NCBI GenBank assembly: GCA_016717115.1
Contig: JADKGE010000001.1
Span: 508,584 to 572,583, forward strand
Reading direction: 5' to 3'
Source: Actinomycetota bacterium
GTDB taxonomy: Bacteria > Actinomycetota > Actinomycetes > S36-B12
Length of the DNA: 64,000 nt
Under the pieces are notes generated by a model. The model searched no databases. It was not told where the DNA came from and was given only the letters and a program-made list of their open reading frames with translations. Below are positions 37,033-53,867 of the stretch, one piece after another (the stretch's first letter is position 1; each line of letters begins with the position of its first letter). The position numbers and the translations under genes were made by a program.

Positions 37033-37858
37033 CCATGCGGTGGGGCAGTCCCGGGCCGGCTACGGGGATCGGTCGGCCCAGGCCGTCATTGATGCCGTTG
37101 GGCGGTCCGCTCTGCGGCTCCACGCATGCCGCATTCGGCAGCATGTCGAACACGACGAACCACGGCGCATCGTTGACGACGTCGATGGCCAGCGCGCCGG
37201 GCCAGCGCAATGTCGCCACTCCCGACGGCACGACGAAGACGTCATCGAAAGGCCCCGCATCCGGGTCGTACGGCCGCACATCATGGCTGGGCAGATAGTC
37301 GTCCCCGCGCAACACCTGCTGCGTCGCCTCAAGTCGCCACTCCAGAGGGCCGCCACGGCCGACACTGCGCACGAACCATGGGTGCCACCCGACCACGGCC
37401 GGCGACTCACCCTGCTCGGAGTTCACGGAGATCTCCGTGGTGAGCGTGCGACCGCGCAGCTCCCACGTGATGTCGATCGCCACCGGCCACGGCCAGGTGG
37501 GGCTCTTCGCCACCCTCGCGACCAGGAGCGCGCCGTCCGCGTCCGCCTCGCTCCGGAGGATGTCGACGGGCTGGTCCAGCGCCGTTCCATGCAGCGCCCA
37601 ACTCGCGTACGTGGGCGGCAGCTGATGCTGGTAGCCCTGCCACTCGACGCGGTTGGCGCGCAGTCGTCCGGCCCACGGAGCCATGGGGTACATGCCATGA
37701 CTCACGGCGTCGTCCTTGTGGTGCGCGAGGACCGACAGGCCCCCGACCGTCCAGCGCACGGCGCGGGCCCCCGACTCGAGATCGATGGCCAGTTCGACGT
37801 CCTCCCATCGGAGGACGTGCTCAGGACGCGGCGGCATGGTGGGCTCGCGCGAGGACAT
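36986..37858 (-). CDS. aldose 1-epimerase (galactose mutarotase-like) family protein
   Basis: ORF 36986..37858. Mutarotase-like blocks are present (HGMYPMAPWAGRL, LHGTA, GWHPWF). It lies downstream of the ROK regulator in the xylose locus. It has a 47-nt convergent overlap with 35914..37032. Confidence 0.75.
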   Translation of the reverse strand: MSSREPTMPPRPEHVLRWEDVELAIDLESGARAVRWTVGGLSVLAHHKDDAVSHGMYPMAPWAGRLRANRVEWQGYQHQLPPTYASWALHGTALDQPVDILRSEADADGALLVARVAKSPTWPWPVAIDITWELRGRTLTTEISVNSEQGESPAVVGWHPWFVRSVGRGGPLEWRLEATQQVLRGDDYLPSHDVRPYDPDAGPFDDVFVVPSGVATLRWPGALAIDVVNDAPWFVVFDMLPNAACVEPQSGPPNGINDGLGRPIPVAGPGLPHRMVTTWTMRDDPPVEPA

Positions 37859-39038
37859 CGATGGGATCGGACAGCAGCGCCTCGAACGCCGTCTCGGCCG
37901 CGCCTAGCAGCGTGCTGTCGCCGCTGAGCGACGGCACCTCGACACGCACCTGCTCGCGCACCGCGGGCAGCGCATAGTGGATCCGGCGGTAGACGGTGCC
38001 GCTGACGAGTGGGAAGAGCAGTCGCAGGTGACCGCCGAGCACGATGACCTCGGGATTGAACAGGTTGACGAGGTTGGCGAGCCCGATGCCCAGCCACTCG
38101 CCAGCCTCGTCGATGGCCGCCTGCGCCTTCGGGTTGCCACCTGAGGCCGCCGCGATCACATCGGCAACCTCCATCTGATCACCGCCGAGTCCCGCCGCAG
38201 CCAGGATGGCATCGCGTCCGATCTCGGTCTCCCAGCACCCCTTGGCCCCACAGCGGCACATCGCCCCTTGGGGGTTCACCACCATGTGACCGACCTCGCC
38301 GCCGTACCCGCCGGCGCCGGTCATGGGGCGGCCGTCGATGATGACCCCACCACCGATGCCCACCTCTCCCGAGACGTAGATGAGGTTGCGGCTGTGCTTA
38401 CCGACTCCGCGCGCATGCTCGGCGATCGCGCCGAGGTCGGCGTCGTTGTTGACCGCCACCGCGGGGGCGAAGCCGAACGCTGAGGTGAGTCCCTCCCGGA
38501 CCATGTCGCCGAGGGGCACGTCGACCCACCCCAGGTTGGGGGCCAGCCGAACCCGGCCGTCGACATGGTCGACGATGCCGGGGACGCCGATGCCGACACC
38601 GACCCAGGTGGCGGGGCTCGGCGCCTTGCCCATCATCGAGCCCACAAGACTGACGATGTTGCGCAGTGCCGTCTCCGGTGTGTAGCTCGAGCGCTTGTGC
38701 CGCTGCTCCTTGTGCACGAGCACGTCCCCGCCCAGGCCGACGAGTGCCGCGACGGTGCGCTCGACGCGCAGGTCGAACGCGACGACGACGGCCGACGATG
38801 CGCTCGGCTGGACCATGAGCGAGGGCCGACCGACCTGTCCGGCGGCGCCGGCACCCTCATAGACCAAGCCCACGTCGGCCAACTCGGAGACCAGCACACC
38901 GACGGTGCTCCGGTTCAGCCCGGTGAAGGCAACCAGATCCGACCTGCTCGCCGCGCCTCCCTCGTGGAGGCGCCGGAGGAGCCGAGCGAGGTTGTGGCGA
39001 CGGAGGTCGTCCTGGGTCGCAGCGCTTCGTGTTGCCAT
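37821..39038 (-). CDS. ROK-family transcriptional regulator (XylR-like by context)
   Basis: ORF 37821..39098 trimmed to the ATG at 39038 (MATRSAATQDDLRRHNLARLL). It has an N-terminal wHTH, a ROK sugar-kinase-like domain and the zinc motif CRCGAKGCWE. Confidence 0.88.
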   Translation of the reverse strand: MATRSAATQDDLRRHNLARLLRRLHEGGAASRSDLVAFTGLNRSTVGVLVSELADVGLVYEGAGAAGQVGRPSLMVQPSASSAVVVAFDLRVERTVAALVGLGGDVLVHKEQRHKRSSYTPETALRNIVSLVGSMMGKAPSPATWVGVGIGVPGIVDHVDGRVRLAPNLGWVDVPLGDMVREGLTSAFGFAPAVAVNNDADLGAIAEHARGVGKHSRNLIYVSGEVGIGGGVIIDGRPMTGAGGYGGEVGHMVVNPQGAMCRCGAKGCWETEIGRDAILAAAGLGGDQMEVADVIAAASGGNPKAQAAIDEAGEWLGIGLANLVNLFNPEVIVLGGHLRLLFPLVSGTVYRRIHYALPAVREQVRVEVPSLSGDSTLLGAAETAFEALLSDPIDVLARAHHAAAS

Positions 39039-39063
39039 GCGCCTTTCGACCAATCCTTTGCGG

Positions 39064-40368
39064 CTAGCTGGGGCTCGAGCGTTTTCTGGAGATGGCATCG
39101 ACGCTCGCTGCGACCAGGAGGACCAGGCCGGTGACGACGTACTGGATGCCCGACTGCTGCGTCACCAGCGGGAGGCCGTTGGCGATGACCGCGATGACGA
39201 GCCCGCCGATGACCGCGTCGATCATGCGGCCGCGGCCGCCGAACAACGAGGTGCCGCCGATGACCGCGGCGCCGACGGCGAACAGCAGCGTCTGGGCGCC
39301 GCCGGTGGTGGGTGACACCGAGTTGTCGCGGGATGCGATCAGGACGCCTGCGACGGCAGCCAGCGTCGAACAGATCATGAAGCAGGCGATCTTCAGGCCT
39401 TGAACGCTGATGCCAGCACGGCGCGCCGCCTCGGCATTGCCGCCGACCGCGTAGATGTGCCGGCCGAAGCCAGTGCGGGTCAGTACGAAGGTGAGGCCGA
39501 CCAGCAGGACGAGGATGACGAGAACCGCCCACGGCACACCCTGAAGGACGGGAATGCACCCTTCGGGACTCGGCGGGTCATTGACCTCGCACGCCACCTT
39601 CCCGGGCCGCACGATCTGACGCTGTTGGTTCAGGACGAAGACGCCGACTCCGAGGAGGATCGCGAGCGCACCGGTCTTCGCCGCCCAGACCGCCGTTGCC
39701 ATCGAGGCCAGCCCGGCCTTGCGCCGAGCGGTGATTCCCCGCAGCGTGACGAAGGCGTAGCCGATGACCACGACGATCCACACCACCCAGCCCATCCACG
39801 TGGGCATGTTCTTGTTCATGATGGCGAGCAGTTCGTCGCTGCGGAGGGTGATCGTGCCGCCCTCACCGATGATCAGCAGCATCACGCCTTGCAGCGCCAG
39901 GAACATTGCCAAGGTGACGACGAACGATGGTATGCCGAGCCTCGCCACCAGAACACCGATGAGGAAGCCGATCAGCGTTCCCGTAAGGAGCCCAATGATC
40001 AGCGCTATGGGCCATGCCAGGCCCCACGATGTCAGGGCGATCGCGAGCACCGCCGCCGCTGTGCCGGCCGTGAAGCCCGCAGACAGGTCGATCTCGCCCA
40101 GCAACAGGACGAAGATGAGGCCCATGGCCAGAACGATGATGGCGGTGCCCTGGTTGAGCAGGTTGGCGAAGTTGAGGTAGGAGAAGAAGGTCGATGGCTT
40201 CAGGGCGCTGAACAGGATCAGGAGGACAATGAGACCCAGGACCGCCGGCAGGGAGCCGACTTCACCGCCCTTGACGCGGGTCCAGTAGTCACGAAGGGCC
40301 TGGCCGATGCCACCCTGGTCGCCGGCCGCGGCGATGTCCACGTCGGTGACCTGCTGCGTCGCGCTCAT
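39064..40368 (-). CDS. sugar ABC transporter permease (XylH-like)
   Basis: ORF 39064..40368. It is a polytopic membrane protein of the monosaccharide (CUT2) permease type. It overlaps the ATPase gene by 4 nt. Confidence 0.88.
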   Translation of the reverse strand: MSATQQVTDVDIAAAGDQGGIGQALRDYWTRVKGGEVGSLPAVLGLIVLLILFSALKPSTFFSYLNFANLLNQGTAIIVLAMGLIFVLLLGEIDLSAGFTAGTAAAVLAIALTSWGLAWPIALIIGLLTGTLIGFLIGVLVARLGIPSFVVTLAMFLALQGVMLLIIGEGGTITLRSDELLAIMNKNMPTWMGWVVWIVVVIGYAFVTLRGITARRKAGLASMATAVWAAKTGALAILLGVGVFVLNQQRQIVRPGKVACEVNDPPSPEGCIPVLQGVPWAVLVILVLLVGLTFVLTRTGFGRHIYAVGGNAEAARRAGISVQGLKIACFMICSTLAAVAGVLIASRDNSVSPTTGGAQTLLFAVGAAVIGGTSLFGGRGRMIDAVIGGLVIAVIANGLPLVTQQSGIQYVVTGLVLLVAASVDAISRKRSSPS

Positions 40369-41150
40369 GCCGCACCAACCACGTTCGCAACCTCCGGTTG
40401 CAGTCCGAGTTCGCCGCTTCGACCCGAGGTGATGAGTTCGACCACGCGCCCGTGGGTCACTTCACTCGCCTTGACCTGGGCCGCGAGGGCACCGAGGTAG
40501 AGACAGGCGATGTTGTCGGCTACCTGCATGACGTCGTTCATGTTGTGCGAGATGAGGATGACGCCGAGACCGTTGTCCGCGAGGCGTCGCACGAGATTGA
40601 GGACCTGCTCGGTCTGTGCCACACCCAACGCTGCGGTCGGCTCGTCAAGGATGACCAGCTTGGAGTTCCAGAGAACGGCACGCGCGATGGCGACGGTCTG
40701 CCGCTGCCCGCCGGACAGGCTCGACACCTGCTGCCGCACCGACTTCAAGGTGCGCACGGACAGCCCGCTCAGCGTCTCACGAGCCCGCTTCTCCATCGTG
40801 ATCTCATCGAGGATGATCGACTTCTTCTCCTCGCGACCGAGGAACATGTTGTGCACGACATCGAGGTTGTCGCACAGCGCGAGATCCTGATAGACGACTT
40901 CGATGCCCAGATGGTTCGCCTGCTTCGGGTCCGTGACGTGCACCGGATTGCCATCGAAGAGGTACTCGCCAGAGTCGAACGGGTAGATGCCCGCCACTCC
41001 CTTGACGAGGGTGCTCTTCCCGGCACCGTTGTCACCCACGAGAGCGGTCACTTTGCCGGCATACACCGACAGGTCAACACCTCGAAGGACCTGGACGGGT
41101 CCGAAGCTCTTGTCGACGGCCCGCAACTGCAGCAGGGGGGTATCGGTCAT
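40365..41150 (-). CDS. sugar ABC transporter ATP-binding protein (single NBD)
   Basis: ORF 40365..41246 trimmed to the ATG at 41150 (MTDTPLLQLRAVDKSF). Motifs present: Walker A GDNGAGKST, signature LSGGQRQ, Walker B LVILDEPTAAL. Confidence 0.92.
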   Translation of the reverse strand: MTDTPLLQLRAVDKSFGPVQVLRGVDLSVYAGKVTALVGDNGAGKSTLVKGVAGIYPFDSGEYLFDGNPVHVTDPKQANHLGIEVVYQDLALCDNLDVVHNMFLGREEKKSIILDEITMEKRARETLSGLSVRTLKSVRQQVSSLSGGQRQTVAIARAVLWNSKLVILDEPTAALGVAQTEQVLNLVRRLADNGLGVILISHNMNDVMQVADNIACLYLGALAAQVKASEVTHGRVVELITSGRSGELGLQPEVANVVGAA

Positions 41151-41213
41151 GGCGCTACCTTCTCGTAACCGGTAGGGATCGGGGAGGCCTTTCGAAAACA
41201 ACCGCGGTATGAC

Positions 41214-41247
41214 GGTGGGGGCGGATGACACGTCACCCGCCCCCACC
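41214..41247 (-). other. strong intercistronic stem-loop between the substrate-binding-protein and ATPase genes
   Basis: GGTGGGGGCGG (41214..41224) pairs perfectly with CCGCCCCCACC (41237..41247). The stem extends through ATGAC/GTCAC with one mismatch. On the transcribed (minus) strand it is followed by a weak U-rich tract (UUGUUUUC). Confidence 0.45.
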
Positions 41248-41293
41248 GTGTCCTACATCGCCCGGATCACTGTGCGTCCGGGCGGGGGGTTAC

Positions 41294-42484
41294 CTAGGAG
41301 ATGCCGTTCGCAGCGCAGGCCTTCTCGAGCTCCGGCGTGGCGCAGACCTTCTCCACCGTGGTGAAGCCGTCAGCGATGACGTCCTTCACGTTCTCGGGGT
41401 AGATCGCCTGCGGCACCAGCAGAACGCTGGGAACCTCGGTGCCGGCCTCGCTGTCGGTCGTCGTGCCGGTGGCGAGTGCATCCGCTGCTGCGGTATCACC
41501 ATTGGCGAGGGCGACCATGAGGGCGGCAGCCGCCTCGGCCTCCTTCTTGACGGCCTTGTACACGGTCATGCACTGAGTGCCGAGCAGCACGCGCTGCAGG
41601 CCCTCGTCCGTGGCGTCCTGGCCGGTGACGAAGATCTTGCCGGCCTGGCCGTTGCGGTCGAGGACGGAGATCACGGCGCCGCCGAGACCATCGTTAGCCG
41701 AGGCAACGCCGACGAAGTCGCCGTTGGCCTTGGTGTACATCTGCTCGAAGATCGTGCCGGCCTTCGTGTTGTCCCAGTCCGGAACAGACTCGTCAGCAGT
41801 CGGCGTGAAGCCGGCAGCCTCGATGGCCGTCGAGTAGCCCTGCTTGAACAGCGTGGCGTTGTTGTCGGTCGGCGAACCGTTGAGGTACGCCACGTTGCCG
41901 GACGTCGTGCCCGCGTCGTTGAGGCACTTGACAAGGCCCTCGCCGATCGTGGTGCCCACGGCGACGTTGTCGAACGACACGTAGTACTTCGCGCCGCCAC
42001 CGAGGGTGAGGCGGTCGTAGTCGATGACCGGGATGCCGGCGGCGTCAGCCTTGGCGATGACCGCGGCAGCAGACGGGCTGTCGAGGTTGACGATGGCCAT
42101 GACCGAACAGCCACCGGCGATCATGCCGTCAGCGATGGTGGCGAACTTGGTCTTGTCACCATTCGCGTTCTGGATGTCCGACTCAAGGCCAGCGGCCTTG
42201 AATGCCTCGTCGAGGAACGGACGGTCGACGGTCTCCCAGCGCACCGACGACGCGGCGTCGGGGAGAATGACGCAGGCCTTGCCACCAGCGGCGGCCATTG
42301 CCGACGACGCCGCAGGCGCAGCCGAGGAGGCCATCGCAGCGGCCGACGACGCAACAGCTGCAGCCGACGTGGCTGCGGCAGCCGCGGACGACGTCTCACT
42401 GCTAGTACTGGAACCGCCGCACGCGGCGACGAGCAGGGAGGCGGCGGCGAGGCCGGCTACTGCTCCATAGATTTTCTTGGACAT
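41294..42484 (-). CDS. sugar ABC transporter substrate-binding lipoprotein (XylF-like)
   Basis: ORF 41294..42484. A lipobox (LLVAACGG) and a long Ala/Ser-rich linker are followed by a periplasmic-binding-protein type I fold (KACVILPDAASSVRWE...). Confidence 0.88.
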   Translation of the reverse strand: MSKKIYGAVAGLAAASLLVAACGGSSTSSETSSAAAAATSAAAVASSAAAMASSAAPAASSAMAAAGGKACVILPDAASSVRWETVDRPFLDEAFKAAGLESDIQNANGDKTKFATIADGMIAGGCSVMAIVNLDSPSAAAVIAKADAAGIPVIDYDRLTLGGGAKYYVSFDNVAVGTTIGEGLVKCLNDAGTTSGNVAYLNGSPTDNNATLFKQGYSTAIEAAGFTPTADESVPDWDNTKAGTIFEQMYTKANGDFVGVASANDGLGGAVISVLDRNGQAGKIFVTGQDATDEGLQRVLLGTQCMTVYKAVKKEAEAAAALMVALANGDTAAADALATGTTTDSEAGTEVPSVLLVPQAIYPENVKDVIADGFTTVEKVCATPELEKACAANGIS

Positions 42485-42568
42485 GCGGTGCTGTCCCTTC
42501 CCCGCAGGAGACCTGCGAATTTGCTAGATGGAGTGGTGCTGTCGATCACGGGTGTCGGATGACGCGTA

Positions 42569-43735
42569 TCAGGCGATGCCCAGGATGTGATCGATGACGA
42601 GCTGGTCGAGCGCCTCGTTGCCGAAGCCCCGCGTTGCGAGGACGTCGACGTCGAAGCTCTCGGCCTTCAACCGTGCTGCGGACTCCGATGAATACGGACC
42701 CACAGTCGGTTCCGCGAGCTCTGCGACGCCGGAATACGCCATCGCCTCGGCCACACGGGGATCTTGGTCGAACTCGCGGGCCTTGGCCGCGAGCGCGAGG
42801 TAGTTGCGGATGCAGCCGCGCGCGAAGTCCCACACACCAGCAACATCCTCGGTGCGGTAGGCATGGGCGTCGAAGTGCTTCGCCCCCGCATAGCCGCTGT
42901 TCTCCAGCAGGCGCACCAAGAAGAAGTGGTCCTTGATGCCCTCGGATCCGAACCGGAAGTCCTGGTCGAACCGGCCGATGCGCTGGTCGTTGAGATCGAT
43001 GTGGAACAGCTTGTCCTGCCACACGGCCTGCGCGACCGCCTGGTAGAAGCTCAGGCCCGACATCGTCTCGTGCGCGACCTCGGGGTTCACCCCCACCATG
43101 TCCGCATGCTCCAGAGTGGAGATGAACGCGAGGGCGTGGCCCACCGTGGGCAGGAAGATGTCACCACGAGGCTCGTTCGGCTTCGGCTCGAGGGCGAAAC
43201 GCATCCCGTAGCCCTTGTCCAGGACGTAGCCGGCCAGGAAGTCCAGCGCCTCGGCGTACCGCGACAACGCGTCACGCGTGTCCTTCGCCGCCGCCGTCTC
43301 CACGCCCTCACGCCCGCCCCAGAACACGTACGTGGGAGCGCCCAACTCTGCAGCCAGGTCGATGTTGCGCATCACCTTCTGCATCGCGAAGCGCCGCACC
43401 GACGGATCGTTCGAGGTGAACGCGCCGTCCTTGAACACCGGATGGTGGAACAGGTTGGTGGTCGCCATGGAACAGACGAGGCCGGTCTCATCGAGAGCCT
43501 TCTTGAACGCCTCGACCTCCGCCTGGCGCTGCGCCTCGGGCGCCCCGAACGTCATGAGGTCGTCGTCATGGAAGCTGATGCCCCACACGCCCAGGTCGGC
43601 GAGACCCTTGATCATGTCGACAGTTTCGATCTTGGGACGTACCGCGTCCCCGAAGGGGTCTCTACCGCGGTTGCCCACCGTCCATAGCCCGAACGCGAAC
43701 CTGTCCTCTGGCTTGGCGACGAACTCCACCGGCAC
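42569..43735 (-). CDS. xylA: xylose isomerase (class I, actinobacterial type)
   Basis: ORF 42569..43735. The N-terminus PEDRFAFGLWTVGNRGRDPFG, the motif ISFHDDDL and the length (~388 aa) are characteristic. Confidence 0.95.
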   Translation of the reverse strand: MPVEFVAKPEDRFAFGLWTVGNRGRDPFGDAVRPKIETVDMIKGLADLGVWGISFHDDDLMTFGAPEAQRQAEVEAFKKALDETGLVCSMATTNLFHHPVFKDGAFTSNDPSVRRFAMQKVMRNIDLAAELGAPTYVFWGGREGVETAAAKDTRDALSRYAEALDFLAGYVLDKGYGMRFALEPKPNEPRGDIFLPTVGHALAFISTLEHADMVGVNPEVAHETMSGLSFYQAVAQAVWQDKLFHIDLNDQRIGRFDQDFRFGSEGIKDHFFLVRLLENSGYAGAKHFDAHAYRTEDVAGVWDFARGCIRNYLALAAKAREFDQDPRVAEAMAYSGVAELAEPTVGPYSSESAARLKAESFDVDVLATRGFGNEALDQLVIDHILGIA

Positions 43736-43783
43736 GACTCTCCCTCAGGCTCATCCCCGTGGGCGACCAACCGACCCGTGCGT

Positions 43784-43830
43784 CAATTGTTGGCTGCCGC
43801 AACATACATTGTTGTTGCCGCAAACATATG
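43784..43830. promoter_or_regulatory. tandem ~21-nt direct repeats in the AT-richer xylB-xylA intergenic region (candidate ROK/XylR operator pair)
   Basis: ATTGTTGGCTGCCGCAACATA (43786..43806) and ATTGTTGTTGCCGCAAACATA (43808..43828). Each contains inverted arms TGTTG...CAACA/AACA. CAATTGT recurs at about 43855. Confidence 0.35.
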
Positions 43831-43922
43831 CCGATCGAAACCGCCGACACAAGCCAATTGTGCATCGATTCGACATCATCTGGTAACGATTTGGTCACGT
43901 CGACGAGGGCAATCAACTGCTG

Positions 43923-45317
43923 CTACACCGACGCGTACAACGCCGTTCGCGCGGCGGCGTAGGCCTCGCGCACCCCACGCACCGGCGCGGGGTCGAACGT
44001 CGTGCTGTCGCCGGACCGAGATCCCGACCAGTCGGGTGGCGAGGCTGCTCCGCTGAGCACCCAGGCCGCCTGACGGGCCGCCCCATCGGCCACGTACTCG
44101 CCCGCCGGCGGCACGACCACAGGCACGTCGAACATCGTGGCGGCCACCGCGCCGACAGCGGGATTCGACGCGGCCCCGCCGACGAGCAGCACGCGAGTGG
44201 GCCGGACGCCTACGCCGACGAGGGCGTCCACCGCGTCAGCCAGTCCGCCGAGCATGCCCTCCACCGCCGCCCGTGCCAGGTTCTCGGGAGTGAGGTTGGC
44301 CCTCGAGACGCCCTGGATGGAGCCGCGGGCGTCGGGCAGGTTGGGCGTGCGCTCCCCGTCGAAGTACGGCAGGAGGACGAGGCCGCCGGATCCCGGCTCG
44401 GCCGCGAGGGCCAGCCGCGAGAACCCGTCGAGGTCGACCCCGAGCAGGGCGGCCGTCGAGGTGAGGATGCGCGCGGCGTTGAGCGTGCACACCAGGGGAA
44501 GGAAGTACCCGGTGGCATCGGCGAAGCCCGCGACGAAGCCGGTCGCGTCGGCGGCAGGCGTCGTCGACACGGCGAAGGCGGTGCCCGACGTGCCGAGGGA
44601 GACGACGACGTCGCCCGGGCGCGTGTCCAGGCCCAGCGCCGCCCCCATGTTGTCGCCCGTCCCGGGGCCCAGGGTGATGCCGCCCGCCGTCGTTCCGACC
44701 GCCTCGGCCGGATCCGCCACCCGTGGGACCGCGGGCACATGGCCCAGCGCCAGCTCCAGAAGGTCGGGTCGGTACGCGCCGGAGATCGGAGACCAGTAGC
44801 CGGTGCCCGACGCCTCGCCTCGGTCCGTCACCGCCTCGTCCGGACGACCCGCCAGCACCCAGGTGAGGTAGTCGTGCGGGAGCATCATTCGGGCCGTGCG
44901 AGCGGCCTTGGCCGGTTCGACGCGCGCCATCCAGCGCGCCTTCGTCACGGTGAACGCCGCCACGGGCACGCTGCCGATCGCCTCTGCCCACGCAGCCGGT
45001 CCCCCGAGCTCACGCACGAGATCCGCCGCGTCCTGGGCCGACCGAGTGTCGTTCCACAACAGTGCCGGACGGACGACCTCACCCGACTCGTCCAGAGCCA
45101 CCATTCCGTGCTGCTGCCCGGCGATGGCCAGGGCCTGCACCCCCTCGAGCACCCCGTCGGTGACGGCGTCGAGTGCGTTGAGCCAGGCGGCCGGATCCAC
45201 TTCGGTGCCGTCGGGATGGCCAGCGCGGGCCTCCCGAACGAGGTCGCCCGTCTGCGCATCGCGGACGACGATCTTCACGGACTGCGTCGAGGAGTCGATC
45301 CCAGCTACCAAGGCCAT
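43923..45317 (-). CDS. xylB: xylulokinase
   Basis: ORF 43923..45317. FGGY-kinase N-terminus [18 protein letters not shown]. It lies directly upstream of xylA on the same strand. Confidence 0.9.
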
Positions 45318-45444: not shown

Positions 45445-46776
45445 ATGATTCGTTCGGAGGTAGGCATGGGCCGTCTAGGGATCGAGACACGGTCGTCGCT
45501 CTCGATGCACCTGTCCGAGTACGGCCCGCTGCCCGCGACCCCGCGCCGACACGGCTCCGAGCCCGGGTCGCTCGTCGACGAGGTCGAGACGGCCGGGCTG
45601 CGCGGGCGCGGGGGCGGCTGGTTCCCCACATCGCGGAAGCTGCGAGCCGTGGTGGAGAGCTCGGCCGGCCGGGGCCGCCTGAACCGGTCGCGCCACCCCG
45701 TCGTCATCGCCAACGGCATGGAGGGCGAGCCGGCGAGCAGCAAGGATGCCGGGCTACTGGCCTCATCCGCGCACCTCGTCTTCGACGGGATCTCCGCGGC
45801 CGCCGCCACCGTCGGCGCCACCAATGCCTTCCTCGCCATCCACCGGGACTCCCCCGTCATCCCGACGCTGCTGAAGGCGCTGGACGAACGCCACGCGGCA
45901 CGTCTGGACCCGCTGGCCATCCACCTGGTCACGCCCCCCGCCAGGTATGTGGCCAGCGAGGAGAGCGCGCTGTCGCACTGGGTCGGCGAGGGTGTCGCCA
46001 CCCCGGTGTACCCCGACCGGCCCTTCCAGAAGGGCGCGGCCGGACGCCCCACACTGGTGCAGAATGTCGAGACCCTGGCCCACCTCGGCCTCATCGCCCG
46101 TCACGGCGGTGCCTGGTTCGCCGAGCTCGGCGCTCCCAGTGCGCCAGGATCGACGCTCGTCACCGTCGGTGGGGCGGTCCGCGATGCTGGCGTCGTCGAA
46201 GTCCCCACCGGCACGCCCGTCCGGCAGATCCTCGAGCTGTGCGGCGGCGCCACCGAGCCGGTGCGCGGCTACCTCACGGGTGGGTACGGAGGTGGCTGGG
46301 TCGCGGCCGACGGCTTCGACACGACCGCGTGGGACCCCGAGTCGATGCGGACCGCAGGAGCGGTCATCGGCGCATCCGTCCTGTGGCTCATCGGCGAGAG
46401 CACCTGCCCGATCGATGAGATGGCGCGCGTCGCGGCCTGGATGGCCGGCGAGAGCGCCGGCCAGTGCGGACCGTGCGTGTATGGCCTGCCGTCCCTGAGC
46501 GACGACGTCCACCAGCTGGCCACTCGGCATGCGGATGCGGCGGACATGGCGCGCCTGGAGAGGCGACTCTCGCTCGTCTCGAACAGGGGGGGCTGCAAGC
46601 ACCCCGACGGAACGGCCCGGTTCGTGTCCACGGGCCTCGCCGCGTTCGCCGACGAGGTGGCCCTCCATCTCGACCGGCGCTGCTCGGTCACCGCGCGCGG
46701 ACAGGGACCAGCGGCCATGCCCGTGCCGCCTGCGCGCCTCGCCCTGGTCGACGTGTCCGGAAGGGACTTCGAGTGA
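45445..46776 (+). CDS. NuoF-like (complex I 51-kDa subunit family) flavoprotein with SLBB and 4Fe-4S regions
   Basis: ORF 45445..46776 (start may be the ATG at 45466). NuoF blocks are present: GLRGRGGGWFPTSRK, GMEGEPASSKD, YVASEESAL, RPTLVQNVETLAHL. The cluster motif reads ESAGQCGPC (first Cys replaced by Ala). Confidence 0.8.
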   Translation: MIRSEVGMGRLGIETRSSLSMHLSEYGPLPATPRRHGSEPGSLVDEVETAGLRGRGGGWFPTSRKLRAVVESSAGRGRLNRSRHPVVIANGMEGEPASSKDAGLLASSAHLVFDGISAAAATVGATNAFLAIHRDSPVIPTLLKALDERHAARLDPLAIHLVTPPARYVASEESALSHWVGEGVATPVYPDRPFQKGAAGRPTLVQNVETLAHLGLIARHGGAWFAELGAPSAPGSTLVTVGGAVRDAGVVEVPTGTPVRQILELCGGATEPVRGYLTGGYGGGWVAADGFDTTAWDPESMRTAGAVIGASVLWLIGESTCPIDEMARVAAWMAGESAGQCGPCVYGLPSLSDDVHQLATRHADAADMARLERRLSLVSNRGGCKHPDGTARFVSTGLAAFADEVALHLDRRCSVTARGQGPAAMPVPPARLALVDVSGRDFE

Positions 46777-47003
46777 GCACCGACGACACTGTCGCGACCT
46801 TGCTGCTGAACCCGACCCTGTGCGACGGCCGCGGGATGTGCCACGACGCTGCTCCCGACCTCATCGAGCTCGACGAGTGGGGATACCCGCTCCTACCGGG
46901 GCACACACTGCGGGCCGACCTCACCAAGGGACAGCTGAAGGCGGCCGAGGACGCCACGCATGCATGCCCCGTGCTCGCCCTTCACATCGAACGGCGGCGG
47001 TAA
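46773..47003 (+). CDS. small ferredoxin
   Basis: In the frame of ORF 46464..47003, starting at GTG 46773 (GTGA overlap with the NuoF-like gene). It shows the LCDGRGMC...ACP pattern of single-cluster ferredoxins. Confidence 0.7.
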   Translation: MSTDDTVATLLLNPTLCDGRGMCHDAAPDLIELDEWGYPLLPGHTLRADLTKGQLKAAEDATHACPVLALHIERRR

Positions 47004-48502: not shown

Positions 48503-49180
48503 CTACCCGGCGGGACGCACCGCGTTCGGACGGGTGCGAACGTTCGCCAGGCGTGGAACGCGCATCAATGGCGAGCACTGCGACAGCTGCCTGGTGAGGA
48601 ACGACCTCTCCTGAGCATCGACGGCCAGCCGCCACCGGTACTTCACGCCGATCCACAGCTTCACATAGCCGCACCGCTGCGAGGCGGCAGGCGGCATCCA
48701 CTCGTCCGGCTCGCTGTCCTGCTTGCCGCGATTCGTCGCCATGGTGACGGCGATCAGGGACGCCGCGTAGCCGAGATCGTTGGCGAACGCGTCGCGGGTC
48801 GCCGCCGTCCAGCGCCGGGCCCCGGACGCCCACGCCTCCGCCAGCGGCACGCGATGGTCGATGTCGAAGGAGCCAGCGTCCGCGGTCCGCACCCCGTCAT
48901 ACGTCGACAGCCAGCGTCCGCCCCGCACGTCGCAGTTCACGACTCGACCGGACAGCCGCTCCGCGATCAGCACCTCCTGCCGGGTGTCGCAGCCGTCGCC
49001 GTCGGCATCCCGCCAGTCCGCGAACGCCTCCCGCTCGTACCCAGCGGTGATCTCGGGCGTCACGGGGAGGGAGGTGAGGAGCATCGTCGCCGGCCGACGC
49101 TCAGCCGCATAGGCAGGCGCGGCAGACACTGCGGAGCAGGCCAGCGCCGCCGCCAAGGCGACGACAACCGGGCTTCTCAC
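48503..49180 (-). CDS. secreted DUF1524/HNH (His-Me finger) nuclease-like protein
   Basis: ORF 48503..49216 trimmed to the GTG at 49180 (GTGA overlap with the upstream gene). A signal peptide (VVVALAAALACSAVSAAPAYA) is followed by a DUF1524-like core (FDIDHRVPLAEAW...NDLGYAASLIAVTMATNRGK). Confidence 0.75.
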   Translation of the reverse strand: MRSPVVVALAAALACSAVSAAPAYAAERRPATMLLTSLPVTPEITAGYEREAFADWRDADGDGCDTRQEVLIAERLSGRVVNCDVRGGRWLSTYDGVRTADAGSFDIDHRVPLAEAWASGARRWTAATRDAFANDLGYAASLIAVTMATNRGKQDSEPDEWMPPAASQRCGYVKLWIGVKYRWRLAVDAQERSFLTRQLSQCSPLMRVPRLANVRTRPNAVRPAG

Positions 49181-49611
49181 GTCTCGAAGATAACGCCCTT
49201 GCGAAGGATGAAGCATCCGTACGGCTGGGCATCGAGCGTGTGCACGACCGCGTACGCGTCCTTCGCCCGGTCGTAGAACTCCAGGCGCGGAATCACCCCG
49301 TAGTGCAACGGTCGGCCCTCGCGCTCCGAGGCGAGGGCGAGGAGCTCGTCCTGCACCGGCGTCGTGCGATCCGGATCGTCGTCGACCTCCATGCGCTCCA
49401 GCGGGTGCTCCACGAAGCCGTCGAGCGGGAAGACGCTGAGCAGCGCCCGGGCGGCCCGCAGGATCGACGCCTCGCCGAGCCGGATCACCGGCTTGCCGGA
49501 GGCGGCAGCCGGGTAGTTGCGGTCGACGAGCAGCAGCCGGTCGCCGTGCCCCATGTCGTCGAGGATCTTGAGCAGGTCACCGCTCAGCAGCGGATCGATT
49601 CCCTTGAGCAT
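49177..49611 (-). CDS. RbsD/FucU-family sugar mutarotase
   Basis: C-terminal 144 codons of ORF 49177..49932, starting at the ATG at 49611. MLKGIDPLLSGDLLKILDDMGHGDRLLLVDRNYPA matches the FucU/RbsD N-terminal signature. Confidence 0.85.
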   Translation of the reverse strand: MLKGIDPLLSGDLLKILDDMGHGDRLLLVDRNYPAAASGKPVIRLGEASILRAARALLSVFPLDGFVEHPLERMEVDDDPDRTTPVQDELLALASEREGRPLHYGVIPRLEFYDRAKDAYAVVHTLDAQPYGCFILRKGVIFET

Positions 49612-49624
49612 GGCTACTGATTGC

Positions 49625-49885
49625 TCACTGCGCGTCGAGAGCGATCGCGACCGTCTCCTCCTGAGCGACGAGATTCGCATCGGCGTCGTAGACGCTGACG
49701 GTCTCATCCTCGAGCAGAAGCGTGCCGTCGCTGTCGAGCACGTCGATCGTCTCGTCGACCATCGAGCCTTCGGGTCCCGTGGCGACGACAACGTCGTCCA
49801 CGACCGCCCCGACGACCTCGCCGGCCTCGTCGCGGACCACCGCCACGTCCACTTCCTCGCCGATCTCGATGTCGTCCTCGCCCAT
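49625..49885 (-). CDS. small hyper-acidic hypothetical protein (86 aa)
   Basis: The 3'-terminal 261 nt of the otherwise antisense ORF 49625..52048. The ATG at 49885 is preceded by AGGAGG at optimal spacing. GC3 bias is high. The sequence is MGEDDIEIGEEVDV...ALDAQ, with about 26 Asp/Glu against one Arg by hand count. Confidence 0.65.
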   Translation of the reverse strand: MGEDDIEIGEEVDVAVVRDEAGEVVGAVVDDVVVATGPEGSMVDETIDVLDSDGTLLLEDETVSVYDADANLVAQEETVAIALDAQ

Positions 49886-49987
49886 GGTTCCTCCTGGTGT
49901 CGGCTGGTGGTCCTCCGCCCCGGCGGGCGCACGGCAGTCTACGACCCGCTGCACCGTGATATCGGGTGAACCTGCGGCTACCATCAA

Positions 49988-52483
49988 GTGCCGAAGAGGG
50001 GAGCGGAGATGGTCGATCCCGACATTCCCCTTCCGGACCTCACCGACGAAGCGCAGTACCGACTCCTGTCCGACAACCCCGGCGACATCGTCTATCGCTG
50101 CGGACCCGACCTGCACCTGGTCTGGGTGTCCGAGTCGATCACGTCCGTGCTGGGCTGGACGCCGGCGGAGGTGATCGGTACCGCCATCTCCGACCTCACG
50201 CATCCCGAGGACCGCGCGTCGAACCAGGACCAGGCGGACACGGTTCGCTCGGGGATCCATGTCCCCGAACTGTCGACCGGCACCGTCCCTCCCGTCCGCG
50301 TTCGGGCGCGCGACGGGAGCTACCGATGGGTGTCCGCCATCGGCATCCCCCTGATGAGTGCCGACGGGACCGCCGTCGGTGTCGTGGGCCGCCTGCGAGA
50401 CGTGGACGCGGCCGAGCGATCGGTCCGGGCGCTCGAACACAGCGAGGAACGGCGGCGCACGGCCTTCGACCACCTCCTGGACCCGCTCCTGGTGATGGAA
50501 CCGGTGCGCGACGAAGCGGGCGAGATCATCGACTTCGAGTACGTCGAGGTGAACGAGGCGGCGTGCCTGTACAACACCATGCCGTACGAGCAAATGATCG
50601 GAGCCCGGCTGCTCGATCTCCAGCCCGGCAACCGCGATAGCGGCAGCTTCGCCGAGATCGTCGCCGTCTTCGAGACCGGCGTACCCCTCATCGTCGACAA
50701 CTACCCGTATGAGCAAGAGCTCATGGGTGGCGAGCGCCGCTACTACGACCTCAGGGTCGCCAGGGCCGCCGACGTGCTGATCTACACGTGGCGCGACGGA
50801 ACAGACCGCCGGCTGGCCGAGGAGGCCGTCGCGGAACGAGAGGACCTCTACCGGCTCGTCACCGACGAGGTGACGGACGCGGTCGTTCGCTTCGACGACG
50901 AGGGCCTGGTGACGTGGGTCTCGCCGTCGTTCGAGCGGCTCACCGGGTTCTCGTCCGATGCCGTCATCGGGCAGTCGGGCATGCGACTGCTCCCGCCGCC
51001 CGAGGTGCCCAGCGCTCGCGACCTGCTGACGCGGCGGGTATCCGGCGAAGACACCGGTCCGACGACCCTGCAGATGGTCTGCGCCGACGGGAGCCATCGG
51101 TGGGTGGAGGCGACGTCGCGACCGTTCATCCGCCACGACGGCACCCCGGGGGGATTCGTCGCCGTGCTGCGCGACGTTCAGGAGCAGGTCGACGCCCAGC
51201 TGCGGCACGAGCACGAGACGGGACACGACGCCCTGACGGGCCTCGCCAATCGCGATCTGGCCATCGCCCGACTCAACCGCGCCCTTGACGACATCGGCAA
51301 CAGCCGCGGGCTGATCGCCCTGCTGTCCGTCGGCGTGGACCGTCTCACCACCGTCAACCAGGCCATGAACTACGCCGCAGGCGATCGGGTGCTCTCCACC
51401 GTGGCCGCCCGGCTGGCCGCCGCCGTAGGAGATCCGGACCGGGTGGCGCGGGTTGCCGGCGACGAGTTCGCCATCCTCCTGCCCGGCCTGGTCAGCGTGG
51501 CAGACGCAGCGGCCAAGGCCGAGTGGCTGTGTGCCGCGGCGCGCGGCACCATCACGATCGACGCGCAGGTGATCGAGCCCACGGTGAGCATCGGCGTCGC
51601 CATCGGCGATCGCACATCCACCAGCGAGGAACTCCTCCGCAAGGCCAGCCTCGCCGTGCAGCAGGCCAAGGCGGCTGGTCGGGATCGCTGGCAGTTCGTG
51701 GATGCCGAGCTGGCCCTCGACGCCCAGCGGAGGCTCCGGCTCGAGACCCAGTTGCGCGACGGCGTGCGCGAGGGCCGGATCGTTCCGTGGTACCAGCCGA
51801 TCGTCACGCTGTCCGACCGTCACGTCCACGGCTACGAGGCCCTGGCCCGCTGGGTGCCGCAGGACGGCGAGACGATGCTCCCCCAGGACTTCCTCTCGGT
51901 CGCGGAGAGCACCGGGTTGATCGTCGATATCGACCTCGCCGTGCTGACCCATGCGCTCGACCTTCTCCGGGTGACCCCGATCGAGCACGTCGCCGTGAAC
52001 GTCTCCCCGCCCACCCTTGCAGTCAACGAGTATCCCGATCGATTCCACGATCTACTGACATCGTCCGGGGTCGATCCGACGCGGCTACGGCTCGAAGTGA
52101 CCGAGACCGCCCTGCTCGACGTGGCACCAGCCATCGCCGAGGCGATGCGATCGATGGCCAGCACCGGAGCCACCTGGTACGTCGACGACTTCGGCACCGG
52201 CTTCTCGTCGATCAGTCACCTACGCGACCTGCCCGTCCGCGGCCTGAAGCTCGACCAGTCGTTCACGGCGGGGATCCGCAAGGGCGACGGCACGTGCATC
52301 AAGCTGGCGCAGGGACTCATCGGCCTCGCCGAGGGCCTGGGGCTGGACACCGTCGCGGAGGGCGTCGAGACGGAGTTCGAGGCGGGCGCGCTCCTGGGCC
52401 AAGGCTGGCGCCAGGGCCAGGGCTGGCTCTTCGGCCGCCCCGCAGCGACTGTCCCAGTCAGTCCACCCGGAAGCGCGGGCTGA
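49988..52483 (+). CDS. PAS-PAS-PAS/GGDEF/EAL signalling protein (c-di-GMP turnover)
   Basis: ORF 49988..52483 (alternative ATG at 50009). It has repeated PAS-like blocks and a GGDEF domain with the AGDEF variant (RVAGDEFAILLPG). The EAL domain has YEALARW, DDFGTGFSS, LKLDQSF and EGVETE. Confidence 0.92.
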   Translation: MPKRGAEMVDPDIPLPDLTDEAQYRLLSDNPGDIVYRCGPDLHLVWVSESITSVLGWTPAEVIGTAISDLTHPEDRASNQDQADTVRSGIHVPELSTGTVPPVRVRARDGSYRWVSAIGIPLMSADGTAVGVVGRLRDVDAAERSVRALEHSEERRRTAFDHLLDPLLVMEPVRDEAGEIIDFEYVEVNEAACLYNTMPYEQMIGARLLDLQPGNRDSGSFAEIVAVFETGVPLIVDNYPYEQELMGGERRYYDLRVARAADVLIYTWRDGTDRRLAEEAVAEREDLYRLVTDEVTDAVVRFDDEGLVTWVSPSFERLTGFSSDAVIGQSGMRLLPPPEVPSARDLLTRRVSGEDTGPTTLQMVCADGSHRWVEATSRPFIRHDGTPGGFVAVLRDVQEQVDAQLRHEHETGHDALTGLANRDLAIARLNRALDDIGNSRGLIALLSVGVDRLTTVNQAMNYAAGDRVLSTVAARLAAAVGDPDRVARVAGDEFAILLPGLVSVADAAAKAEWLCAAARGTITIDAQVIEPTVSIGVAIGDRTSTSEELLRKASLAVQQAKAAGRDRWQFVDAELALDAQRRLRLETQLRDGVREGRIVPWYQPIVTLSDRHVHGYEALARWVPQDGETMLPQDFLSVAESTGLIVDIDLAVLTHALDLLRVTPIEHVAVNVSPPTLAVNEYPDRFHDLLTSSGVDPTRLRLEVTETALLDVAPAIAEAMRSMASTGATWYVDDFGTGFSSISHLRDLPVRGLKLDQSFTAGIRKGDGTCIKLAQGLIGLAEGLGLDTVAEGVETEFEAGALLGQGWRQGQGWLFGRPAATVPVSPPGSAG

Positions 52484-53867
52484 GGGCCGACGGGCGGCTG
52501 TTGCCCATCTCCGTGCGCGCCGTCACCCGGAAGCGGTACATGCCCGGGCGGGTGGGGAGGCGACACGAGAGGGTCGCCGCATCAGGCTCGGCTGGCAGAC
52601 CCGTGCACACGATGCGTCCCTTGTCGTCCTTCACCACGTACCGGATCACGACCGCCGACGATCGGCCGACGAGGGAGTCGAACACGATCTGCGGCATCCC
52701 CCTCGCTGACTCCTCGATGCGCGGCGCCGGCAGCCGAGGTGGCGGTGCGATGACGACCCGCCCGGACGCCCCAACGGGAAGCGCATCGCCCTCGTTCTCG
52801 GAGTTGCGACTGCGCACGGTGAAGCCGTGCGTCCCGTCGCGCAGATCGGCCACGGTGCATGTGGTCGCGGTGGCCTGGCAGGCCAGGACGCCGCGAGCAT
52901 CAAGGACGTCGTAGCCCACGATCGCCTCGGCGGACACGACCGGCGGCAGCCAGGAGACCGTCGCGGTGCGGTTGCGCGCAACGGCCAGGATGGACTGCGG
53001 TGCACCGGGAATCGTCGGATACCCCGCACTTGCAAGGGCGGAATTCAGCACCGGAAGGTAGCCCACGGCCGCCGCACTGATGCTCAGGAGATCCGACGAG
53101 GGCGGCTCCTGGCAGGCGCTGTTCGAGCCGACCTCGACGCCCAGCAGGAACGCGCTGGTGCCCTCCATGCGGAACACCGGGCTGCCGCTGTCACCCGGGC
53201 ACAGGCCCTTGGCCTCCGTCTGGTCGGTACTGAAGATCTGGCCGAGCAGTGAGCCCGGCCGATAGCCGGACAGGGGAAGGGAGATGGAATGCGGGCCCCT
53301 CGTCGGCGTCTTCGCCGCCACCAGGCCGTAGCCCACGTGCTCCACCTGGGAACCAGCCTTGGCCCAGCGCGCGAGGTCGAACTGCGTGGCCAGGCGGGTG
53401 AAGCCCGACGGCGCGAGATCGGCGTCGGGCTCGATCACCGCGAAGTCATTGGGTTGAACCAGTCGGCTGGTGTTGACGTATCCGTCGGCCTTCCACCACT
53501 GCCTGACGGCGACCGTTGCCGCGCCCTGCGGACCGGTGTCGCTGTAGACGCGCACCTCGGCGCCCGGCGGGAAGACGGCCACGGCATCCACCCGTCCATC
53601 CGTGCCCGCCGCTGTCAGGCAGTGGGCCGCAGTGATCAGGAGCCTTGGCCTCCACATGGCCGCGCTGCACAAGCCCACCCACTGGCCACCCTCGTTGACC
53701 GCGATGGCGACGACCCCCGGATTGCCGTCCGCGGGTGACCCGCCGTAGACCCGTAGGTCGCCGGGGTCCAGGCCGCGCGCGGCGGACGGTGCCGCGACAA
53801 GCGTGGCCACCGCCAGGACGGCACAGAGCGCGCCCGCGGCACGGTGGCGGCGCACGGGAGACAGCAC
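52458..53867 (-). CDS. secreted trypsin-like (S1) serine protease with C-terminal FN3/Ig-like domains
   Basis: ORF 52458..53867. It has a signal peptide and the catalytic triad context TAAHC, NDFAVIE and GDSGSP. Two beta-rich C-terminal modules follow (TVSWLPP...GFTVRSRN; RFRVTART). Confidence 0.88.
   Translation of the reverse strand: MLSPVRRHRAAGALCAVLAVATLVAAPSAARGLDPGDLRVYGGSPADGNPGVVAIAVNEGGQWVGLCSAAMWRPRLLITAAHCLTAAGTDGRVDAVAVFPPGAEVRVYSDTGPQGAATVAVRQWWKADGYVNTSRLVQPNDFAVIEPDADLAPSGFTRLATQFDLARWAKAGSQVEHVGYGLVAAKTPTRGPHSISLPLSGYRPGSLLGQIFSTDQTEAKGLCPGDSGSPVFRMEGTSAFLLGVEVGSNSACQEPPSSDLLSISAAAVGYLPVLNSALASAGYPTIPGAPQSILAVARNRTATVSWLPPVVSAEAIVGYDVLDARGVLACQATATTCTVADLRDGTHGFTVRSRNSENEGDALPVGASGRVVIAPPPRLPAPRIEESARGMPQIVFDSLVGRSSAVVIRYVVKDDKGRIVCTGLPAEPDAATLSCRLPTRPGMYRFRVTARTEMGNSRPSALSPRFRVD

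Follow-up and report, generated by a model that had tools for sequence, protein, structure and literature searches.

A lineage-restricted family of extremely acidic small proteins with preferential linkage to a predicted secreted DUF1524 nuclease in freshwater actinobacteria

The A/B/C operon

The DNA analysed here is a stretch of 64,000 nucleotides (contig JADKGE010000001.1 of GenBank assembly GCA_016717115.1, positions 508,584 to 572,583; referred to as the window) from an uncultured freshwater/wastewater actinobacterium. It contains three co-directional minus-strand open reading frames (ORFs), here termed genes A, B and C, which form a compact unit (Table 1) coding for an extremely acidic small protein, a sugar mutarotase-like protein and a predicted secreted nuclease, respectively. 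What is new here is the family founded by gene A and its preferential linkage to the DUF1524 nuclease class; the class to which C belongs, that is the putative extracellular DUF1524 nucleases, and the RbsD/FucU family of B are already known. An earlier reading of this DNA made from the letters alone (the sequence-only reading) had described a tightly packed minus-strand trio with a 13-nt gap, a GTGA overlap and an excellent ribosome binding site in front of the first gene, and the coordinates agree on each of these points. The Shine-Dalgarno sequence AGGAGGA precedes the ATG of gene A by 3 nt, and the GTG start codon of gene C shares the letters GTGA with the TGA stop codon of gene B. A, B and C constitute a three-gene operon.

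On one side the unit is bordered by a PAS-GGDEF-EAL gene that is transcribed divergently, on the other by an aldehyde dehydrogenase gene that converges on it; the former has two PAS domains and leaves a gap of ~100 nt to gene A. GC contents at third codon positions (GC3) are 0.87, 0.91 and 0.88 for A, B and C, respectively. Scans for sigma-70 promoters and terminators and an Rfam search gave no result between 47 and 51 kb of the window, which is weakly informative for a high-GC actinobacterium.

Table 1. Positions of the A/B/C unit, its sub-features and neighbouring genes in the window
Feature	Position	Strand	Description
Gene A	49625..49885	minus	86 aa, ATG start; hyper-acidic protein, predicted all-beta, unclassified family
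Shine-Dalgarno sequence	49895..49889	minus	AGGAGGA, 5' of the gene A ATG; direct sequence reading
A-B spacer	49612..49624	minus	13 nt, gene A stop to gene B start
Gene B	49177..49611	minus	144 aa; RbsD/FucU-family sugar mutarotase/pyranase
Gene C	48503..49180	minus	225 aa, GTG start; DUF1524/GmrSD_C His-Me finger nuclease precursor, predicted export
Signal peptide of C	49106..49180	minus	residues 1-25, predicted cleavage between AYA and AE; sequence reading
His-Me (HNH) core of C	48593..48871	minus	residues 104-196, Pfam GmrSD_C match, DIDH and N...N motif
PAS-PAS-GGDEF-EAL gene	49988..52483	plus	divergent from gene A
Aldehyde dehydrogenase gene	end at 48498		convergent with gene C
Trypsin-like protease gene	52458..53867	minus	secreted, with fn3
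NuoF-like gene and ferredoxin ORF	45445..47003	plus	Complex1_51K + SLBB + NADH_4Fe-4S, then Fer4_15
Xylose utilisation cluster	36986..45317	minus	aldose 1-epimerase, ROK regulator, XylH permease, XylG ATPase, XylF binding protein, XylA isomerase, XylB kinase; Pfam

A family of extremely acidic proteins with a predicted all-beta fold

The gene A product contains 14 Asp and 12 Glu residues (30% Asp+Glu) together with a single Arg and no Lys, which puts its net charge near -25 and its pI near 4; the hand count given in the sequence-only reading was exact. Its net acidic fraction of 0.29 compares to a mean of 0.024 (standard deviation 0.046, maximum 0.14) for the 47 putative genes of the window. 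Neither a hydrophobic N-terminus nor a signal peptide is present in the translation. The loosely repeating pattern that had also been remarked upon is upheld by self-comparison: residues 44-65 (DETIDVLDSDGTLLLEDETVSV) align with residues 60-81 (DETVSVYDADANLVAQEETVAI) at a period of 16 residues, and the ungapped self-score of 61 compares to 30.8 ± 5.8 in composition-preserving shuffles, with one of 2000 shuffles reaching 61.

In a word-indexed search (E<=0.01), gene A had 327 homologues. For the 120 best, identity is 75-89% and length 85-91 aa, and most of them start with MADDDIEIGE (MxDDDIEIGE being shared); none of the 120 carries a Pfam domain or an informative name. An exhaustive profile search against 1.84 billion representatives at 50% identity yielded 38 clusters only, 27 of them at E<1e-10, and a profile of the distant members collected 748 clusters at 90% identity, of which those with a name belong to metagenome-assembled genomes (MAGs) of Candidatus Nanopelagicales, Actinomycetales or Actinomycetes. 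The protein of the window itself is recorded in the wastewater MAG 'Actinobacteria bacterium IPO93'. Family members have a net charge of -20 to -27 and a length of ~85 aa, and the gene is single-copy in every locus examined. Comparison of gene A with 76 distinct homologous DNAs revealed 1269, 857 and 3095 differences at codon positions 1, 2 and 3, respectively, and 1780 synonymous versus 1987 non-synonymous codon changes. Nine acidic residues (E7, D19, D30, E45, D48, D51, E59, E61 and D67) are conserved to at least 90%, even among members that are ~50% identical. The acidity of A therefore exceeds mere compositional bias, as individual acidic positions are kept. Taken together, these comparisons indicate that gene A is a real gene under purifying selection and that it founds a lineage-restricted family confined to Nanopelagicales-like Actinomycetes.

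The reading frame of gene A stays open for a further 2.1 kb in the 5' direction, forming an 807-aa 'ORF' (49625-52048, minus strand) antisense to the GGDEF-EAL gene. This is a mechanical artefact of DNA with 69% GC, in which open frames of this kind are common, and the gene comprises the last 86 codons only; the ATG at 49885 was taken as the start because of the Shine-Dalgarno sequence and the N-terminus common to the homologues. The same open frame could suggest that A is itself a chance ORF of a GC-rich genome. However, the hundreds of homologues with the same length and start, the excess of third-position differences, the GC3 of 0.87, the strong Shine-Dalgarno sequence and the confident fold prediction all speak against this explanation, which is effectively refuted. 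Among the related proteins, P0145 (167 aa) combines A-like residues 1-65 with a GNAT-acetyltransferase-like C-terminus and may represent a true fusion, a frameshift or a gene-call artefact.

AlphaFold2 modelled A from an alignment of 31 sequences with a pLDDT of 93.1 and a pTM of 0.75. The model has five long strands (residues 7-18, 24-37, 40-51, 56-67 and 72-81) and no helix; A is thus predicted to consist of five beta strands built from the 16-residue hairpin repeat. Foldseek comparison of the model with PDB and BFVD returned nothing at E<=0.001, and the best TM scores were obtained with generic open beta sheets, namely ToxS (0.61), VtrC (0.53) and capping protein (0.52), all at E>=0.05. A profile search of PDB sequences gave no match at E<=10, and A had no Pfam family above cut-off, no NCBIfam family and no PADLOC match. 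The earlier statement that no family name is known for the small protein thus holds for the Pfam, NCBIfam, PADLOC and PDB searches.

The nearest approach to a named family was DUF3659 (PF12396), with 14.8 bits and an E-value of 0.027, the gathering cut-off of 24.8 not being reached. Sub-threshold matches to DUF3659 occur in 10 of 19 relatives of A, the best at 6.6e-4, and two members have a precomputed PF12396 match. Membership in DUF3659, RHS_repeat/YD, LytB_SH3 (SH3-like) or NifZ was considered and rejected, as all these matches are sub-threshold and reflect the hairpin motif only. A Pup-like tag, suggested by the C-terminal Gln, was likewise dismissed: the C-terminal residue varies between E, K, G, V and Q among the relatives, and A is modelled as a folded beta protein.

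Genomic partners of gene A

The product of gene C matches Pfam PF07510 (GmrSD_C/DUF1524) at 4.1e-7 with 30.4 bits, above the cut-off of 23. An alignment of 32 sequences shows no variation at D108-H109, N134 and N150, and four Cys residues are conserved in 105 of 110 orthologues. The N-terminus (VRSPVVVALAAALACSAVSAAPAYA, followed by AE after the predicted cleavage site) is signal-peptide-like, and an uncharged stretch of at least 10 residues is found within the first 45 aa in 104 of 110 full-length orthologues. Together with the Pfam match this bears out the claim that the last gene encodes a signal-peptide-bearing DUF1524 nuclease-like protein. The GTG start is backed by orthologues opening with VRSP... 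or MRSA...; public gene calls at three of the related loci (L001-L003) place the start at an internal ATG, leaving 193 aa, and thereby lose the signal peptide. AlphaFold2 modelled C with a pLDDT of 87.7, and the top Foldseek matches are all HNH nucleases (Gme HNH, Cas9 HNH, Vibrio endonuclease I and McrA), none of them significant. Many orthologues carry a C-terminal Excalibur Ca-binding domain, which the copy in the window lacks. From these features C is predicted to be a His-Me nuclease of the DUF1524/GmrSD_C type that leaves the cell by the Sec route and whose catalytic residues are intact. Proteins of the DUF1524 plus Excalibur class are listed as putative extracellular nucleases in the classification of the His-Me superfamily (PMC5714182).

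DUF1524 is also the nuclease half of GmrSD (PMC5714182), and the sequence-only reading had drawn an analogy to GmrSD and to defence-related DNA mimics such as Ocr and ArdA. No GmrS/DUF262 half was found in C and no DUF262 gene in the operon; C is therefore not a GmrSD restriction enzyme. A nuclease paired with a small adjacent protein, the nuclease being of the GmrSD kind, could still be viewed as a polymorphic-toxin-type toxin-immunity pair or an anti-phage module. We consider this highly improbable. C carries a Sec signal but nothing resembling LXG, Rhs or another trafficking domain; A occurs once per locus and evolves under purifying, not diversifying, selection; PADLOC has no match for A, B or C; and the locus is chromosomal, syntenic and located beside sugar genes rather than in an island. 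The defence analogy is thus not supported for a protein that is predicted to be secreted.

To place the operon in its wider context, 95 related loci were collected, in which A, B, C and the other genes of the window were located by tblastn. Dereplication at 96% identity of the A DNA gave 67 groups, and neighbours were counted in those 26 groups that extend 3 kb or more to either side of A. In 19 of these 26 groups (16 of 23 when loci seeded with C are left aside) the DUF1524 nuclease C is no more than 1.5 kb away from A, and FucU, i.e. gene B, lies within the same distance in 14. Counted within 3 kb, XylB is found in 10 groups, GGDEF and NuoF-like genes in 5 each, and aldehyde dehydrogenase and trypsin-like genes in 3 each. 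Nuclease C is the most persistent neighbour of A across the related genomes. In seven groups (L055, L057, L059, L061, L073, L075 and L085) it is the sole remaining neighbour known from the window. The gene orders encountered are compiled in Table 2. Where A and C are adjacent, they are separated by ~50-170 nt, with a 1-nt overlap in the P0252 contig. Look-ups seeded with C rather than A found A nearby by sequence in 4 of 7 cases and likely in one more, in which an 85-aa ORF overlaps the start of C; no A was found within 4 kb in the remaining 2 of 7. One of the latter is L087, whose right-hand gene order is that of L092, where A lies 6 kb upstream.

Table 2. Gene orders around A in related loci
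Arrangement	Loci
A-B-C	window, L009, L016, L023, L047, L065, L078, L088 and others
A-B without C	L005, L007, L008, L014, L020, L021, L026, L048, L074
B-A-(opposite-strand FMN dehydrogenase)-C	L030, L035, L037, L043
glpD-A-C, then convergent moeA	L057-L064 (mid-GC clade)
Trypsin-like-A-C-xylB	L034, P0252 contig
Hydrolase-A-C, then convergent aldh	L090
C-A	L085
B-A-xylB	L011
A, with FucU-C 6.1 kb off after insertion	L092
A without B or C	L052, L076, L083, L012/L093, L094/L095

Gene B matches Pfam RbsD_FucU (PF05025) at 8.7e-32 with 110.9 bits (cut-off 25) and stays below both NCBIfam equivalog cut-offs (FucU, 75.7 versus 141; RbsD, 29.1 versus 93). By the Pfam score it is an ordinary member of the RbsD/FucU family, while the equivalog scores assign it to no particular sugar. 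The sequence-only reading had left the mutarotase unexplained. A context has now been found: a complete xylose cluster lies 4 kb downstream of A/B/C, separated from it by the NuoF-like/ferredoxin pair and the aldehyde dehydrogenase gene, and accompanies the A/B/C block in many relatives, and the order FucU-A-XylB-XylA-XylF occurs in L011. The adjoining cluster and this gene order together provide a plausible context for the mutarotase.

The position of B raises the question of whether A assists the FucU/RbsD-like protein or xylose (pentose) metabolism, for instance as a regulator of the mutarotase oligomer or as a partner in its assembly. Genes A and B lie side by side on the same strand, 8-140 nt apart, in 14 of the 26 groups and in both orders (A-B and B-A), the L011 arrangement joins A to FucU and three xyl genes, and in ten dereplicated groups no C was detected downstream of A-B. 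Indeed, the first eight genome loci had given the impression that A and FucU are the true pair and C is incidental, an impression that was overturned by the larger metagenome set. On the other side, A occurs without B in 12 of the 26 groups, including the whole mid-GC clade with its glpD-A-C order, B and C occur without A in L084, no mutarotase is known to need an acidic partner, and B, whose orthologues are 74-84% identical across related loci, is far more conserved than A, as expected of an independent housekeeping enzyme. An accessory role of this kind is therefore improbable.

Several further genes of the region recur in the relatives. The NuoF-like protein is encoded as a stand-alone gene outside any Nuo operon and is followed by the small ferredoxin ORF; this pair is kept between FucU/C and xylB in L005, L007, L008, L016, L023, L048, L087 and L092. 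In L034, L090 and the P0252 contig, A directly follows an orthologue of the secreted trypsin-like protease, which is a further secreted hydrolase of the syntenic block. L094/L095 have a GGDEF-EAL-like gene at a distance of 1.9 kb from their distant A homologue. The insert that separates A from FucU-C in L092 carries genes for a PucR-type regulator, an amino-acid permease, two SDRs, an arginase-family protein and a polysaccharide deacetylase.

A tentative role for A and its relation to known systems

The reading that we favour, albeit tentatively, is that A may serve as a cytoplasmic acidic decoy or inhibitor of nuclease C. Having no signal peptide, A would stay in the cytoplasm, and its first position in the operon behind a strong Shine-Dalgarno sequence makes production in excess probable. 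It could then serve as a polyanionic decoy that imitates DNA, covering the DNA-binding or active-site surface of nuclease molecules that have folded before export, which would amount to a safety catch comparable to barstar or NuiA. The C precursor would be exported unfolded, leaving A behind; once outside, it would gain nuclease activity through disulfide formation and Ca2+/Mg2+ and digest extracellular DNA. B would be co-transcribed for its role in sugar (xylose/pentose) metabolism and take no part in inhibition. We regard such a safety catch as the single most likely function of A, since C is its most faithful neighbour across altered gene orders and contexts, A is predicted to be cytoplasmic and stands first behind a strong Shine-Dalgarno sequence, and its acidity is extreme and position-specific. 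The proposal of the sequence-only reading that the acidic protein could be a cytoplasmic immunity or chaperone factor for the exported nuclease is thus partly supported, namely as far as the genomic linkage, the signal-less A and the predicted export of C are concerned; it is weakened by the retention of A at loci in which C is missing.

A number of observations weigh against this role. C may be inactive in the cytoplasm and thus not obviously in need of an inhibitor, as it is a Sec-type preprotein with four conserved Cys residues; disulfide-dependent activation after export has been described as a route of self-protection (PMC5714182). The mature C proteins are only mildly basic, with net charges of -3 to +7, and A resembles no known inhibitor in sequence or fold, as judged from the PDB profile search and from Foldseek against PDB and BFVD. 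Adjacency of A and C would also arise by loss of B from an ancestral A-B-C arrangement, and genes of mixed function make up the whole region, which is a syntenic block. The check for co-occurrence with DUF1524 genes that had been suggested had a positive outcome, C being the most persistent neighbour of A, but the link is not obligate. In L084, the order is FucU-C-XylB and A is absent within 4 kb. In L006 (6699-7058), C is reduced to ~123 aa and has lost the N...N half of the HNH motif, while A (86% identical) and FucU are intact. In L092 (8001-15517), ~6.1 kb separate A from FucU-C, and the distant A subfamily (L012/L093 and L094/L095) has neither B nor C within 5 kb. Copies of A without C within at least 2 kb retain 14.3 of 15 invariant residues as compared to 14.7 of 15 in copies with C, at equal charge. 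Finally, correlations of distance matrices (mirror-tree) do not single out the pair A-C (0.68) from A-B (0.72) and B-C (0.65); since all three values are dominated by phylogeny, they are non-discriminating.

Some of these observations would equally fit a small acidic beta protein A that is autonomous and has a partner other than nuclease C, its place beside B and C being inherited synteny within one clade. Such a protein could act as a polyanion or DNA mimic towards some basic protein of the chromosome; it could chaperone very basic proteins; or it could bind divalent cations or polyamines. A persists alone in unrelated contexts, that is in L052/L076 and L083, next to a convergent ABM gene in L012/L093 and after a molybdopterin oxidoreductase gene in L094/L095, and where C is absent it retains its invariant residues and its charge. 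It is widespread in Nanopelagicales-labelled MAGs and under purifying selection, as for a housekeeping-type function. The block moreover mixes genes for a trypsin-like protease, a GGDEF-EAL protein, a NuoF-like protein, an aldehyde dehydrogenase and xylose utilisation, so synteny without a common function clearly occurs here. However, inherited synteny does not readily account for the presence of C beside A in 19 of 26 groups as compared to at most 14 of 26 for the other members of the block, nor for the seven groups in which C remains with all else changed, one of them with the inverted order C-A; and no other partner of A was identified. An autonomous role is thus a serious possibility, which we nevertheless hold to be rather less than probable.

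If the safety catch operates as outlined above, the DUF1524/GmrSD_C branch of the His-Me nucleases would have its first protein inhibitor in A. With a fold not described before, a five-strand beta-meander of acidic hairpin repeats of 16 residues, A would act as a DNA mimic, be conserved throughout the abundant Nanopelagicales-like actinobacteria of freshwater and possibly have further basic targets in lineages without the nuclease. This extended proposal, taken as a whole, is possible but somewhat doubtful. An inhibitor of C would add a new structural class to the few protein nuclease inhibitors and DNA mimics and would be the first partner for the uncharacterised secreted DUF1524/Excalibur nucleases. 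It would also open a practical route to their expression, as nucleases are routinely produced together with an inhibitor. The turnover of extracellular DNA in lakes and wastewater, two habitats with many Nanopelagicales-like actinobacteria, probably involves these nucleases. Should A have a role other than inhibition, it would still be a strongly constrained, extremely acidic protein present in hundreds of sequence clusters of the lineage. Either reading is testable with two recombinant proteins.

Pairs of an exported nuclease and a small, acidic, signal-less protein encoded alongside are known from other bacteria, namely NucA-NuiA of Anabaena and barnase-barstar, and NucA is, like C, a nuclease of the beta-beta-alpha-metal (His-Me) type. 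NuiA is held in the cytosol to neutralise stray NucA, expression being best with the inhibitor gene upstream of that of the nuclease, and barstar does likewise for barnase (PMC13522737). A has no sequence or fold likeness to NuiA or barstar, the PDB profile search having no match at E<=10 and Foldseek none below E 0.4. It differs from both in being predicted all-beta, repeat-built and far more acidic, and its pairing with the nuclease is not obligate in relatives.

The colicin E9 and E7 DNases and their partners Im9 and Im7 likewise combine an HNH-type nuclease with a protein of ~85 aa in one operon, and the Im9/Im7 proteins are acidic. Im proteins are four-helix bundles that are encoded downstream of the toxin and evolve fast for specificity, whereas A is predicted to be all-beta, is usually encoded upstream and is under strong purifying selection, and C lacks translocation and receptor domains.

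In its small size and very high acidity (86 aa, a net charge of -25 and nine acidic positions conserved to at least 90%), A is reminiscent of the DNA mimics DMP19, DMP12, Ugi/SAUGI, Ocr and ArdA, although it has no homology to any of them. HU, transcription factors, UDG and restriction enzymes are the targets of the mimics known so far; secreted DUF1524 nucleases are not among them. DMP19 and DMP12 have been described as small acidic DNA-mimic proteins (PMC3384305, PMC3643605), and DNA mimics are proposed to occupy DNA-binding surfaces (PMC3384305, PMC3643605, PMC3902945). With DUF3659 (PF12396; VDxxGxxxG), itself without known function, and with the RHS/YD hairpin repeats, A has the hairpin motif V-x-D-x-x-G-x-V-V-G in common.

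C, for its part, belongs with the DUF1524 nucleases with or without Excalibur, that is group 3 of the His-Me superfamily, which combine GmrSD_C, an N-terminal hydrophobic export signal and the H...N...N motif (PMC5714182). No member of this class is characterised biochemically, and the classification describes no partner protein (PMC5714182). Since the homology tests fail, A belongs to none of the families compared here; in function, its closest analogues would best be seen in NucA-NuiA, barnase-barstar and the colicin DNase-Im pairs, and in style in DMP19 and DMP12.

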